Numbered from the stretch's first letter, positions 9,199 through 14,334 are shown. The stretch: DNA of 37,454 bases from Gemmatimonadota bacterium (GCA_003221825.1 QHUE01000091.1:1-37454); one strand, 5' to 3'. Numbers and translations: made by a program. Notes: generated from the letters alone by a model not told the origin.

Positions 9199-9911
9199 CG
9201 TGCCGCCCCTCCCTGCGGTGCGCTGGCCGCGAGCCAACGCTCCGCGGCCTCGAGATCGCGCTTGTGATCGAGATCGATGATCTTCGCCACCTCTACTGTC
9301 GTGATCGGCGCGCGCACGGCGATGAGCAGCTTGAGGAATGCACGCATCCGGTTCTCCGACGTCACGGCCACGCTGGCGAGCCGGCGCGCGCCCGGACTGA
9401 ATCCGTAGACGCCACCCGTCACCACGACGGGAGCCGTGCCGTTGCGAGGGCTGTCGGCGATTTCAATGGCACGCCCCGCGGCGTCGCGCGCGACGTACAC
9501 CGGCCGCTCGTCATCCACAAACGGCGTTACAGCCAGCACCGCAAATGACCCGGCGCGAAGTTGCTCCGTCACACCGGCATAGACGAGTCGCCAGTCCTCG
9601 GCCGGCATCACCGTATCGACCATCGTGCAGAACACCGGACCCGGCGGCACCACCGCCAGACCCGCCACCAGCGTATGCAGCGAGGAGGGCGTGCGGCAGG
9701 CGCGCACGGTGACGGCCGGAGACGGGGGCTGAACGAGTACGCCCTCGCGCACCATGCTCGTAATCGATTCGCAGCCGAGCTGCTCGAGGATCTGAATCAG
9801 GTTGAGGATCTGCGGCCGGCCGGCCACGGACACTAGCGCCTTCGGCGTCGCCACGCCGTCGGCGGCGAGGCGGCTGCCGTCGCCGCCGGCGAGGATGAGT
9901 CCGTGCGTCAC
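9195..9911 (-). CDS. Nucleotidyltransferase (sugar/alcohol-phosphate cytidylyl- or nucleotidylyl-transferase), 238 aa
   Basis: The N-terminal loop HGLILAGGDGSRL...TPKALVSVAGRP is typical of NTP_transferase/MobA-like enzymes. GTG 9911 overlaps the upstream TGA (GTGA). The longer ORF-track N-terminus is Arg-rich and lies inside the HAD gene. Confidence 0.7.
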   Translation of the reverse strand: MTHGLILAGGDGSRLAADGVATPKALVSVAGRPQILNLIQILEQLGCESITSMVREGVLVQPPSPAVTVRACRTPSSLHTLVAGLAVVPPGPVFCTMVDTVMPAEDWRLVYAGVTEQLRAGSFAVLAVTPFVDDERPVYVARDAAGRAIEIADSPRNGTAPVVVTGGVYGFSPGARRLASVAVTSENRMRAFLKLLIAVRAPITTVEVAKIIDLDHKRDLEAAERWLAASAPQGGAAR

Positions 9912-10591
9912 GACGGCAGCACCTCGGCGAGCTCGGTCAACGTGGTGAGCCGCACCGTCGGCACGTTGGCATCGGGCGAGCGCGCGACCGGTGGCGCGAG
10001 CCACGCGGTCTGCATCCCGAGACTCGCCGCCGGCCTGATGTCGGCTTCGAAGTTGTCTCCGACCATCCATACCGGCTCCCCGTTAACACCGCCGCCGAGC
10101 GACTCGAGCGCGTGGCGGAACAGCCGCGGGTCCGGCTTGGTGGCGCCGACTCGGCCCGAGTCCGCGACCGCGGAGAAGTAGCTCATCAAATCCAGTTCCT
10201 CAAGGCAGGGCACCAAATTGCCAGTAAAATTCGACACTACCGCGAGCCGGTACGACCGCTGCAACCTCGCGAGCAGCGCCTGATTGCGGCGAATCACTGC
10301 GACGGCGTGGGCGTGGAAATCCTCCACGATCCGCTCGCGTGACAGCGTGAGCCCATCCGGAAGACGCGCCAACACGAGCGCCGACTGCAGATCGACCATG
10401 GCGCGAAATCCGAGTGATCCGATCCCCGGCACCCGGAGGAGCGCGCGGTCGGACGCGCGAAACGCGTCCTCGAAAACCGCGAACGGCTCGCGCCCGCCCG
10501 CCGCCGTGTAGCCCGCGTGGAACCGCACACTCCAACGCGCGCCATCGGCGTCGAGCGTGCCGCCGAAATCGAACAGCACCACACCGCGCAC
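9908..10591 (-). CDS. HAD-superfamily hydrolase, variant motif I (D-x-G instead of D-x-D), 227 aa
   Basis: Motif I LFDFGGTLD, motif II VVSNFT, motif III Lys in GATKPDP, motif IV MVGDNFEADI. GTG start at 10591. First gene after a 136-nt gap. Confidence 0.8.
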   Translation of the reverse strand: MRGVVLFDFGGTLDADGARWSVRFHAGYTAAGGREPFAVFEDAFRASDRALLRVPGIGSLGFRAMVDLQSALVLARLPDGLTLSRERIVEDFHAHAVAVIRRNQALLARLQRSYRLAVVSNFTGNLVPCLEELDLMSYFSAVADSGRVGATKPDPRLFRHALESLGGGVNGEPVWMVGDNFEADIRPAASLGMQTAWLAPPVARSPDANVPTVRLTTLTELAEVLPS

Positions 10592-12119: not shown

Positions 12120-14334
12120 GCGCCGGCTCCGCGACGTGGACGCCCGCCGTGCGGTCCGCCCGCAGGATCACGCGGAATACCGCGCCCCCCCCCACGCCGT
12201 CGTCGTTCGGCTCGTTCGCCGCCTCCAGCGTCCCGCCGCACTCCTCGATCAGGCTGCGCGCCACGACCAGTCCCAGTCCCGTGCCCTTTGGCTTCGTGGT
12301 GAAGAACGGCTCGAACAAATGCGGCAACGCGGGAACCGGAATCCCCGGCCCCGTGTCGGCCACCTCGATATGGACGACGTCGCGTGAGGGTGCGCGCGAC
12401 GCACGGAGCGCGATCGCGCGCGGCCGCTCGGGCGCCATCGTCTCGAGCGCCTGCACCGCATTCAGCACGAGATTGACGAAGACCTGATGCAGGAGATCGG
12501 GATCTCCCAGCGCGGGCAGGGGGCGATCGTAGCGGCGCTCGAGCGCGATGTGATTGCGGGTCAGCTCGCCGTCGAGAAATTCCACCACGCCGTCAAGCAC
12601 GAGCGCCGCATCCATCCGTCCGATGCGGCGCTCCCGCCGTTGACGCGAGTCGAGCAGGTCGCGTACGATCGCGGTGATGCGCTCGATCTGCCGCATGATG
12701 ATCCCGAGGTTGCGGCGCCGCTCGGAGTTTTCGGGCTCGTTTTCGAGGAGCAGGCCAGCGCGCCCCGAGATCACGTTGAGCGGCGCCGCGATATCGTGGG
12801 CCAGTCCCGCCGCGAGATTGCCCACCTCCGCCATCTTTTCGGTCTCGCGCAGCCGGCGTTCCAGCACGACCCGCTCTTCGGCTTCGCGCATGATCCGCGC
12901 GCGCGCCGCCTCCAGATTGCTCGCCATCCGGTTGATTTCGTCCTCGAGTGCCGCCAGCTCGCCGCCTTGCAGCAGCCGCGGGCCGCGGCCGTGCCGTTCG
13001 ATGCGATGGGCAAGCTCGCCGCGACCGAGCGCCTGCACCGCGCCGACGAAACGCTTCATCGGCTCCGCCACGAGGCGGCGCACGAGCCACACCGTCAGCA
13101 CGGCGACGATGATGAGCAACGTGAGCGTATTGAAGAAAAATCGATCGCGCACCTGCGCTTGTTGCTGCTGCACGAACGACAATGGCTGCGCCACCTCGAG
13201 CGCGCCCGAAATCCGTCCGTCGGGACCGTAGATTGGCCGGAGTACCGAGAAGACGTCGTGATCTTCCAGCTCGCGCCGGAACGACACCGGCTTGCCGGTC
13301 GCGAGCACCTTGGCGAGCGATGCGGGGGGCGCCGGACTGGGCGTCTCGACGGAGTCCGACACGAGCAGCGGATTCCCGTGCCGATCGTAGAGCAGAATGG
13401 CGTAGATCTTGGGGTCGCTCGTGACCTGATTGATGACGCGCCGGAAGTTGGCGCGCGTGCTGTCCTGAAACGCATACCGCAGCGCTACACCGAGCGCCGC
13501 GCCGTACGCGCCCATCTCCTGCTCGGCCTGCGCAACCAGCGTGTCTTCCCGCTCGGCCATCGACCAATACATGTAACCCACCATGACCACGGTCATCGTG
13601 GGAAGGAGGAAGAGCAGGAGGCGCGTACTGAGCTTCATACCGGACCGCACATCACGAGTCGAGGACTCAGCCAGCTCGGACAGCGTCGTCAGGCGAACGG
13701 TCGGAACGCCCGCTTCACGCGACTTGCGAGGCGCGTCCGGCGGCGCCAGCCAGGCAGTCGCCAGACCGAGTGCCGCCGCCGGCCGGATGTCGGAGTCGAA
13801 GTTGTCGCCCACCATCCAGGCGGGTTGCGAGACGAGTCCGGGCCAGGTGAGCGCGTGCTGGAACAGCCGCGGGTCGGGTTTGGTGATCCCGACGCGGCCC
13901 GAATCGGCGACGACGGAGAAGTACTGCATCACGCCCAGCTCCTCGAGACAGAGCTCGAGGTTGCCGGTGAAATTCGACACGACGCCGAGATGATACGATT
14001 TGTGCAGCTGCGCGAGCAGCTCTTCATTGCGGCGCACGACGGTGCAAGTGGTGGAATGGAACTCGTCGGCGATGGCTCGCGCGGGAAGCGCGGCACCATC
14101 GGTGAGCCGGGGTAACAGCAACGCGGTTTGAGCGTCAACCATCGCGCGGAATCCCAGCCTCTCTATGCCCGAAAGCCGCTCGAGAGCTCGGTCCGACTCG
14201 CGAAACGCCCGGTCGAACGCCGCGAACGACTGTTTGCCACCCGCCGCCCGATAGGCGGCGTGAAAGCGAACGCTCCAACGGGAGCCGTCCGCGTCCAGAG
14301 TCCCGCCGAAGTCGAAGAGAACCAATCCTCGCAC
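12112..14334 (-). CDS. HAD-like domain fused in frame to a membrane sensor histidine kinase (TM - extracytoplasmic domain - TM - HAMP - HisKA - HATPase_c). The kinase alone could start at ATG 13638
   Basis: One open frame. From GTG 14334 (VRGLVLFDFGGTLDADG..) about 225 aa are a paralogue of the HAD at 9908..10591. Where that gene has its TGA, this copy reads ..SELAESSTRDVRSG and then MKLSTRLLLFLLPTMTVVMVGYMYW (TM1). Further elements are TM2 FFFNTLTLLIIVAVLTVWLV, H-box GLAHDIAAPLNVI, and G-boxes DTGPGIP and GTGLGL. The 905-aa ORF-track version runs over the upstream gene and was not used. Confidence 0.7.
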   Translation of the reverse strand: MRGLVLFDFGGTLDADGSRWSVRFHAAYRAAGGKQSFAAFDRAFRESDRALERLSGIERLGFRAMVDAQTALLLPRLTDGAALPARAIADEFHSTTCTVVRRNEELLAQLHKSYHLGVVSNFTGNLELCLEELGVMQYFSVVADSGRVGITKPDPRLFQHALTWPGLVSQPAWMVGDNFDSDIRPAAALGLATAWLAPPDAPRKSREAGVPTVRLTTLSELAESSTRDVRSGMKLSTRLLLFLLPTMTVVMVGYMYWSMAEREDTLVAQAEQEMGAYGAALGVALRYAFQDSTRANFRRVINQVTSDPKIYAILLYDRHGNPLLVSDSVETPSPAPPASLAKVLATGKPVSFRRELEDHDVFSVLRPIYGPDGRISGALEVAQPLSFVQQQQAQVRDRFFFNTLTLLIIVAVLTVWLVRRLVAEPMKRFVGAVQALGRGELAHRIERHGRGPRLLQGGELAALEDEINRMASNLEAARARIMREAEERVVLERRLRETEKMAEVGNLAAGLAHDIAAPLNVISGRAGLLLENEPENSERRRNLGIIMRQIERITAIVRDLLDSRQRRERRIGRMDAALVLDGVVEFLDGELTRNHIALERRYDRPLPALGDPDLLHQVFVNLVLNAVQALETMAPERPRAIALRASRAPSRDVVHIEVADTGPGIPVPALPHLFEPFFTTKPKGTGLGLVVARSLIEECGGTLEAANEPNDDGVGGGAVFRVILRADRTAGVHVAEPARV

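Follow-up and report, generated by a model that had tools for sequence, protein, structure and literature searches.

Two-component systems of the NtrC family, such as AtoS/AtoC and ZraS/ZraR, combine a HisKA-HATPase_c kinase with a regulator made of a receiver, a sigma-54 AAA+ domain, and a Fis-type helix-turn-helix (HTH), while HAD-IA hydrolases with a C1 cap include the YjjG/YfnB nucleotidases, NANP/HDHD4, HDHD3, and 4ygq. Genes resembling both occur together in a 37,454-nucleotide (nt) sequence from a Gemmatimonadota bacterium (GCA_003221825.1 QHUE01000091.1:1-37454; the window), in which two paralogous HAD genes, HAD1 and HAD2, lie on either side of a kinase and regulator gene pair, with all genes of the locus on the minus strand. 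The upstream copy, HAD2, runs without a stop codon into the kinase. Such a junction also invites comparison with open reading frames (ORFs) joined by a one-base frameshift, either through an assembly indel or as a nascent fusion. The window shares with them the missing base, the retained stop, the unfused relatives, and a second split gene, and differs from ordinary cases only in that the fused product would be topologically viable. The arrangement of a paralogue pair around the two-component system is real and conserved. The read-through, however, is in our assessment (probability about 0.9) a private one-base lesion in what are normally two separate, closely packed genes and not an evolved architecture.

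The junction in HAD2 reads ..LSELAESSTRDVRSG-MKLSTRLLLFLLPTM, with no stop. A preliminary description of the sequence had reported this open reading into the kinase but had missed its cause, one base absent 14 nt upstream of the old stop. When the 3' ends of the two paralogues were aligned, HAD1 (GCC GAG GTG CTG CCG TCG TGA) and HAD2 (GCT GAG -TC CTC GAC TCG TGA) differed by a one-base gap, followed by a shared TCGTGA. In an alignment with 16 related loci, the relatives read GCT/GCC GGA GTN CTC GAC TCG TGA (..AGVLDS*) and the window GCT G-A GTC CTC GAC TCG TGA, identifying the missing base as one G of the GG doublet in CTGGAG, between 13668 and 13667; codon 223 is accordingly GAG in the window and GGA, followed by GTN, in the relatives. 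The old TGA of HAD2 (13654-13652) was retained out of frame, 13 nt ahead of the kinase ATG (13638-13636), so the stop codon itself has not been mutated. Without this G, translation enters the kinase frame five codons before the end of HAD2 and passes over the old TGA, giving an ORF of 740 codons. As its alternative, the description had suggested loss of the stop through a recent point or frame change, and the alignment demonstrated just such a change, the deletion of a single G.

With the missing G restored, HAD2 encodes 227 amino acids (aa) ending in ..AGVLDS*. The normal arrangement would then be HAD2 (..AGVLDS-TGA) followed by the sensor kinase from ATG 13638, whose translation is probably coupled to that of HAD2; no Shine-Dalgarno-like sequence was noticed in the HAD2-kinase spacers, which were inspected without a formal test. 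Loss of the G at 13668/13667, by error or by very recent mutation, brings the end of HAD2 into the kinase frame and produces the fused ORF. A longer ORF is also open from 14829 to 12112 (905 aa), of which the part from GTG 14334 makes up the 740 aa. To judge by the orthologues, GTG 14334 is the true start, and the 905-aa reading was rejected, since its extra stretch is a 150-aa membrane-protein gene in another frame. In the 740-aa product, Pfam placed HAD_2/Hydrolase at residues 4-195, HisKA at 505-563, and HATPase_c at 610-726, with weak dCache/HAMP matches below the cutoff. Hydropathy indicated two transmembrane segments, TM1 at ~235-257 and TM2 at ~400-418, and Lys/Arg residues precede TM1, so that the HAD part would be cytoplasmic; this agrees with the topology (HAD inside, then TM1) that the preliminary description had proposed. 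The computed masses were 81.4 kDa for the fusion and 56.1 kDa for the kinase alone.

The relatives compared (L001-L122) came from Gemmatimonadales metagenome-assembled genomes (MAGs) and soil metagenomes, and three layouts were found among them. Type A has the membrane protein, HAD, nucleotidyltransferase, and onward genes without the kinase/regulator pair; type B has the membrane protein, kinase, regulator, HAD, and nucleotidyltransferase; and type C, to which the window belongs, has the 150-aa membrane protein, HAD2, kinase, regulator, HAD1, and nucleotidyltransferase. Eight loci with the type-C order were examined (L001, L003, L010, L018, L086, L089, L098, and L104). HAD2 was a separate gene in every one, ending in ..VL(D/E/A)(S/T/A)-TGA and 227 to 229 aa long where the locus holds it whole. 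The kinase began at M/V-KLSTRLLLFLLPTM in a different frame, -4 to +38 nt from the HAD2 stop, and orthologous kinases begin at MKLSTRLLL. In 7/8 of these relatives the kinase lies in the +1 frame relative to HAD2 with no stop between, which means that any one-base loss near the end of HAD2 would fuse the genes there too. Programmed frameshifting was rejected as an explanation because the relatives need no frameshift; no search for a slippery site was made.

Fused proteins were likewise absent from wider searches. The 740-aa query retrieved 99 kinase relatives at 44-90% identity and 54-69% query coverage, corresponding to the kinase part, and a HAD part was present in 0/99. Nearly all (98/99) were 420-569 aa long; the remaining one, P0015, was a 938-aa kinase-regulator read-through. 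When 1.84 billion representative proteins were scanned exhaustively by phmmer/HMMER with the HAD and sensor parts (residues 1-420), there was no HAD-kinase fusion among the best 150 matches, each of which covered residues 1-~225 or 233-420 but never both. The majority of the kinase matches in this set started at their own residue 1, and the few long HAD matches were HAD+NTP_transf_3 or PfkB+HAD proteins. A literature search for HAD-kinase fusions and for this Gemmatimonadetes operon found nothing relevant except a paper on Bacteroides inositol lipids (PMC9246714). The lesion is thus private to this sequence, and HAD-kinase does not appear to be a conserved multidomain architecture (0/8 loci, 0/99 relatives, and 0/150 best matches).

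These counts bear directly on the proposal of the preliminary description that a HAD sensor module had evolved as part of the kinase, binding a pathway intermediate and tuning the kinase that controls its paralogue's operon. In the places where that description had suggested looking, a stop stood between HAD and kinase in 8/8 orthologous loci, and no fusion was found among the best 150 database matches. HAD2 does stay beside the kinase in eight lineages, the regulator is a sigma-54 activator with a conserved sigma-54-like promoter ahead of HAD1, and the fused topology is feasible, all of which favor such a sensor. Yet no orthologue is fused, nor is any best match among the 1.84 billion representatives; a single absent base accounts for the fusion, and the old stop is still there; HAD2 shows neither acceleration nor changes of its own when compared with the enzyme copy in relatives that lack the kinase; and type-B loci run the same kinase/regulator pair without HAD2. 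An evolved fusion is therefore regarded as extremely improbable. If true, it would constitute a new sensory architecture, in which an enzyme paralogue serves as the input domain of the kinase controlling its own pathway. Because the architecture is absent outside this sequence, annotation or citation of the product as a HAD-sensor kinase is not warranted, and the finding is useful mostly for quality control, in that the 740/905-aa ORF needs either splitting or a frameshift flag.

As to the origin of the lesion, assembly or consensus error and a very recent real mutation were considered nearly equally probable, with a slight lean toward error. The window carries a second frameshift as well as a possible chimeric or recombinant junction. 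The former splits a SusC-like TonB-dependent receptor gene (+ strand) by a frame change of +/-1 at about 34400-34413, outside any homopolymer. The latter was evident from nearest-relative comparisons across HAD2: the membrane-protein gene (150 aa), the 53-nt intergenic region, and the 5' 535 nt of HAD2 were nearest to type-A loci, the HAD2 segment with 92% nt identity to type-A L087/L088 and 70-87% to type-C loci, whereas the last 143 nt of HAD2 and the kinase were nearest to type-C loci, with 90-92% for the 5' half of the kinase. The switch falls 80-130 nt before the lesion, and the pattern suggests that co-occurring relatives have truly recombined or else that the metagenome contig is chimeric. 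In addition, two kinase relatives, P0014 and P0015 (both from source 'src'; 78-85% identity), have lost the HATPase domain through frame disruption, the latter running on into the regulator to give its 938-aa product. The second frameshift, the mosaic junction, and the two broken 'src' kinase genes were all taken as points for error. Separately, the CDP-alcohol phosphatidyltransferase orthologue of two GTDB MAGs aligned in two pieces (L015, 7533-8377; L022, 7824-8646), which may represent further frameshifts in relatives.

Several observations weigh against the error half of our reading. The missing base lies in a GG doublet and not in a long homopolymer, and for about 20 syntenic genes the alignment with orthologues extends over the full length in one frame, so the window is not riddled with indels. 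When metagenome contigs were searched for exact matches to the junction, in its intact or its one-base-shorter form, 0 were found, no near-identical independent assembly was found, and the exact regulator protein had no database record. A real, recent deletion, which would yield an 81-kDa protein with a cytoplasmic HAD tethered to TM1 of the kinase through ~11 residues, would most plausibly be a neutral or mildly harmful accident and not a selected sensor, and this account is held at somewhat less than even. It is compatible with the predicted topology (TM1 with its N terminus inside, preceded by K/R), with the replacement of only the last 4-5 HAD residues, with the stop-free +1 frame of 7/8 relatives, with the ~20 intact neighboring genes, and with the position of the missing base outside a homopolymer. 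It is opposed by the absence of the allele from any independent sequence, by the purifying selection on both genes everywhere else, and by the second frameshift and the nearby mosaic junction, which point to imperfect assembly. Very unlikely, in our view, is the further step that a real loss of the G gave a newborn fusion that is expressed and, given the retention of HAD2 in the kinase transcription unit in at least eight lineages, reveals a true partnership, with the D-x-G HAD helping an NtrC-type kinase to sense a lipid-headgroup intermediate in the cytoplasm.

Comparison of the two paralogues bore out everything that had been reported of them. HAD1 extends from GTG 10591 to TGA 9910-9908 and ends in ..LTELAEVLPS*, matching the described terminus (..EVLPS-TGA). 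The estimate of two-thirds identity to the upstream copy was reproduced by BLASTP against the first 235 residues from GTG 14334 (151/225 identical, 67%; E 2e-107), and the DFGGT motif noted in both copies was found in each as part of the motif I sequence DFGGTLDADG. At the DNA level, dN was 0.24 and dS 1.21 between HAD1 and HAD2, so the divergence of the copies is old. Purifying selection acts on each of them: dN/dS was 0.08-0.17 for HAD2 against its four full-length type-C orthologues (L001, L003, L010, and L018), with medians of 0.11 for the single-copy type-A HADs and 0.12 for HAD1. The possibility that HAD2 is a decaying relic was rejected on these values and on the integrity of every motif. 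In the tree, type-C HAD2 clustered with the single HAD of type A and HAD1 with the HAD of type B, and by this placement HAD2 is orthologous to the sole HAD of relatives that have no kinase/regulator pair.

One observation stands against treating HAD2 and the kinase as mere neighbors: at least eight lineages, over a dS of about 0.7-1.2, have retained HAD2 immediately upstream of the kinase, compatible with some functional tie. HAD2 might then be a separate accessory of the two-component system that makes, destroys, or binds its signal, the fusion being an accidental 'Rosetta stone'. Its purifying selection while in the kinase transcription unit and outside the enzyme operon, its tight or overlapping spacing to the kinase, and the pairing in other Gemmatimonadales of divergently oriented regulator-kinase genes with HAD-NTP operons would all accord with such a role. 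A simpler history, in which a kinase/regulator/HAD1/NTP cassette landed just after the resident HAD, also accounts for the position of HAD2; type-B loci lack HAD2, and its motifs are indistinguishable from those of the catalytic copy of type-A loci. An accessory role is accordingly judged unlikely.

The cassette history was suggested by the distribution of differences among the three locus types. The nucleotidyltransferase tree set type A apart from B and C, the same split as for the HAD, whereas the downstream genes compared (the 277-aa unknown, class-III aminotransferase, CDP-alcohol phosphatidyltransferase, and oxidoreductase) were alike to those of the window across types A, B, and C (73-94%). 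Of the enzyme genes of the operon, HAD and nucleotidyltransferase alone vary between locus types, and hence the kinase, regulator, HAD1, and nucleotidyltransferase behave as a cassette. HAD2 would then be the resident gene, while HAD1 would travel with the kinase, the regulator, the sigma-54-type promoter, and its own nucleotidyltransferase; the cassette may have taken the place of the resident nucleotidyltransferase alone in type C and of both resident genes, HAD and nucleotidyltransferase, in type B. A simple in-genome tandem duplication of the HAD gene was rejected because HAD1 and HAD2 group separately and the nucleotidyltransferase splits likewise, while the genes further downstream do not. 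A likeness was also seen between the spacer that separates HAD2 from the kinase, GTGATGTGCGGTCCGG (in L086, GTGACGCACCGTCC), and the opening codons of the nucleotidyltransferase gene at the HAD/NTP junction of type-A loci, GTGATGCGCGGACTGA / GTGACGCACGGACTC. It is suggestive of insertion of the cassette a few codons into the resident nucleotidyltransferase gene. In six type-C loci (L001, L003, L010, L018, L098, and L104), an extra block of ~50 nt, roughly GGGGAAACACCCCGTT..CTCGGGGTGTTGGCACGAG with an inverted repeat inside, lies between the membrane-protein gene and HAD2; it is absent in the window and in type-A loci. A divergently oriented regulator-kinase pair adjoining HAD-NTP was seen in the distant relatives L040, L046, L051, L054, and L059.

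With regard to the HAD proteins themselves, the HAD-IA C1-cap families were the best PDB and NCBIfam sequence matches of the window HADs, which share with them the nucleophile Asp, the motif II Ser, the motif III Lys, GDNxxxD, and, as modeled, a Rossmann-like core with a helical cap. The AlphaFold model of HAD1 (pLDDT 93.1, pTM 0.89) gave a HAD C1-cap fold, and the top 50 Foldseek matches were all HAD-fold chains, comprising natural members and engineered enzymes (E 1e-9 to 5e-11 for the nearest). The nearest solved folds, at ~20% identity, were YfnB, NANP/HDHD4, HDHD3, and the Thermococcus HAD phosphatase 4ygq, followed in the ranking by L-2-haloacid dehalogenases and related C-X hydrolases. 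NCBIfam scores were far below the curated cutoffs except for the generic HAD-IA model TIGR01549; the L-2-haloacid dehalogenase model TIGR01428, for example, scored 34.3 and 29.2 bits against a cutoff of 125.4. Unlike the described families, the D-x-G family has the extended motif DFGGTLD(A/S)DG, with Gly in place of the Asp+2 general acid, and its members typically have an NTP_transf_3 nucleotidyltransferase as neighbor or fusion partner.

The nucleophile Asp8 (VVLFDFGGT) was invariant in 21 orthologues and 7 distant members. Gly10 replaced Asp+2 in both window copies, in all 21 close relatives, and in the HAD-NTP fusions, and Gly was present at this position in 103 HAD-type matches among the best 150 of an unbiased search. 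The preliminary description had taken D-x-G as a mark of unusual chemistry; this is fair, but the feature is not specific to these two genes and is the hallmark of a large family. A PDB search with the N-terminal 77 residues for solved D-x-G-G-T HADs gave only chance-level matches. Also conserved were motif II VVSN (Ser120), motif III TKPD (Lys152), and the phosphatase-type motif IV GDNFEAD (Asp179 and Asp184), the acidic pair of which presumably binds Mg2+ as elsewhere in the family. By the established chemistry of the HAD superfamily, retention of motifs II-IV argues for Mg2+-dependent phosphoryl transfer rather than dehalogenase chemistry. The acid/base function may be supplied by another residue, perhaps the invariant Asp14 or Asp16 of DFGGTLDADG.

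Proteins of other organisms in which this HAD is fused to NTP_transf_3 included P0100-P0104, P0115, P0179, and P0200. In the fusion set including P0194, the partner was repeatedly NTP_transf_3 (453-802 aa) and once a PfkB carbohydrate kinase. The recurrent nucleotidyltransferase fusion places the enzyme next to a nucleotidyl-transfer step, and together these proteins hint that an activated headgroup is made by way of a kinase, a HAD, and a nucleotidyltransferase. In the window, the GTG start of the MobA-like nucleotidyltransferase gene overlaps the stop of HAD1 (GTGA). The phosphatidyltransferases of the operon that follows resemble (archaeal) phosphatidylinositol-phosphate synthases and its oxidoreductase is inositol-dehydrogenase-like; the gene content points to synthesis of a membrane-lipid headgroup. 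The nearest described precedent is a putative alternative inositol-lipid cluster of Bacteroides vulgatus/Prevotella, of unconfirmed function (Heaver et al. 2022, PMC9246714). Compared by gene types alone, that cluster and the window have in common an NTP-transferase-domain protein, a CDP-alcohol phosphatidyltransferase, and a HAD hydrolase, and in both a membrane protein resembling lysyl-PG synthase is encoded close by; the window operon has in addition a class-III aminotransferase, a GFO/IDH/MocA oxidoreductase, a second phosphatidyltransferase, a GT4 glycosyltransferase, and a deacetylase. The biology that remains once the fusion is set aside therefore comprises a large, uncharacterized family of HADs that have Gly at Asp+2 and as a rule a coupled or fused nucleotidyltransferase, in an apparent membrane-lipid headgroup pathway; one operon in three layouts among soil Gemmatimonadales; and a conserved sigma-54-type control region that appears to link the kinase/regulator pair to the operon.

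The kinase has the domain order TM1, Cache-like periplasmic domain, TM2, HAMP, HisKA, and HATPase_c. The NtrC-family domain sets of both proteins (receiver, sigma-54 interaction AAA+, and HTH_8; HisKA and HATPase_c) were above the gathering scores, and orthologues of the regulator were 87-96% identical. The pair thus shares HisKA and HATPase_c, and receiver, sigma-54 AAA+, and Fis HTH, with systems of the AtoS/AtoC and ZraS/ZraR type. AtoS and ZraS were its best NCBIfam matches, yet the scores were far under the equivalog cutoffs, and the sensor domain of the kinase, in contrast to those systems, is specific to Gemmatimonadales.

A conserved element with the GG-N10-GC spacing of sigma-54 promoters, with a palindrome upstream of it, precedes the presumed target operon and is a candidate counterpart of the target promoters of NtrC-family systems. 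The regulator-HAD1 intergenic region is 136 nt long and contained blocks invariant in 12 loci (L002, L004, L010, L017, L018, and L116-L122): TGTCCCGA..CTCCCCA, the palindrome TGGGGCGAATTGCCCCA, CTAAGTC, and CGGTAyyG-N3-TTGCC. The sigma-54-like element ends 13 nt ahead of the HAD1 GTG, a position that would leave a promoter there almost no 5' leader. In the window it has 2 mismatches to TGGCAC-N5-TTGC, a match that alone is not significant, such matches not being rare by chance, and a sigma-54 consensus scan of the window alone gave fewer matches than the chance expectation; the candidate is supported because it is conserved across loci and not by the window match. A scan for sigma-70 promoters and terminators over 9500-15800 gave nothing above shuffles. 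The kinase/regulator pair probably controls the HAD1 operon via sigma-54. This part of the preliminary description was reasonable, given the NtrC-type sigma-54 activator and the element invariant in the 12 loci, while the HAD feedback sensor that it had attached to this control was unsupported. The features of the locus are collected in Table 1.

Table 1. Positions of the features discussed, numbered from the first nucleotide of the window
Feature	Position	Strand	Description	Basis
Operon behind HAD1	594-9917	-	Nucleotidyltransferase, 277-aa protein without family match, class-III aminotransferase, GFO/IDH/MocA oxidoreductase, two CDP-alcohol phosphatidyltransferases, HpnL/LPG-synthase-TM flippase-like protein, alpha/beta hydrolase, GT4 glycosyltransferase, polysaccharide deacetylase	
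Nucleotidyltransferase	9195..9917	-	MobA-like (NTP_transf_3)	Pfam
HAD1	9908..10591	-	227-aa HAD-IA-type hydrolase, motif I DFGGT; heads the operon that lies downstream of the regulator gene; clade always accompanies the kinase/regulator pair	ORF, Pfam, tree
Sigma-54-like promoter candidate	10604..10619	-	CGGTACCGCTCTTGCC (GG-N10-GC)	CGGTA and TTGCC invariant, 12 loci
Palindrome	10679..10695	-	TGGGGCGAATTGCCCCA; candidate NtrC-type activator site	Nearly invariant in 12 loci
Response regulator	10728..12119	-	Receiver, sigma-54 AAA+, AAA lid, Fis-type HTH; NtrC family	Pfam
Histidine kinase proper	12112..13638	-	508 aa from ATG 13638	Pfam, orthologue starts, hydropathy
Former HAD2-kinase intergenic spacer	13636..13654	-	Relic TGA 13654-13652 out of frame	Sequence, alignment with HAD1 and 8 orthologous junctions
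HAD2	13652..14334	-	Resident HAD gene	BLASTP, tree, dN/dS
Lesion site	13666..13668	-	Codon 223	Multiple alignment with 16 type-A and type-C loci
Mosaic switch point	13745..13800	-	Approximate	Sliding-window identities, best-hit tables
Membrane-protein gene	14388..14840	-	150 aa, upstream of HAD2	tblastn of orthologues: 77-90% identity, full length
SusC-like receptor halves	32666-34489 and 34413-35747	+	Overlapping ORFs	Match residues 22-451 and 553-999 of solved homologue 8aa4_A

Elsewhere in the window, a SusD-like gene follows the SusC-like gene at 35762-37360, and a patatin-like phospholipase is encoded at 15657-16511. A trehalose-related cluster occupies 22152-29257, with a GT20 trehalose-phosphate synthase domain (+), a GH15/trehalase-N protein (+), and a trehalase (-).

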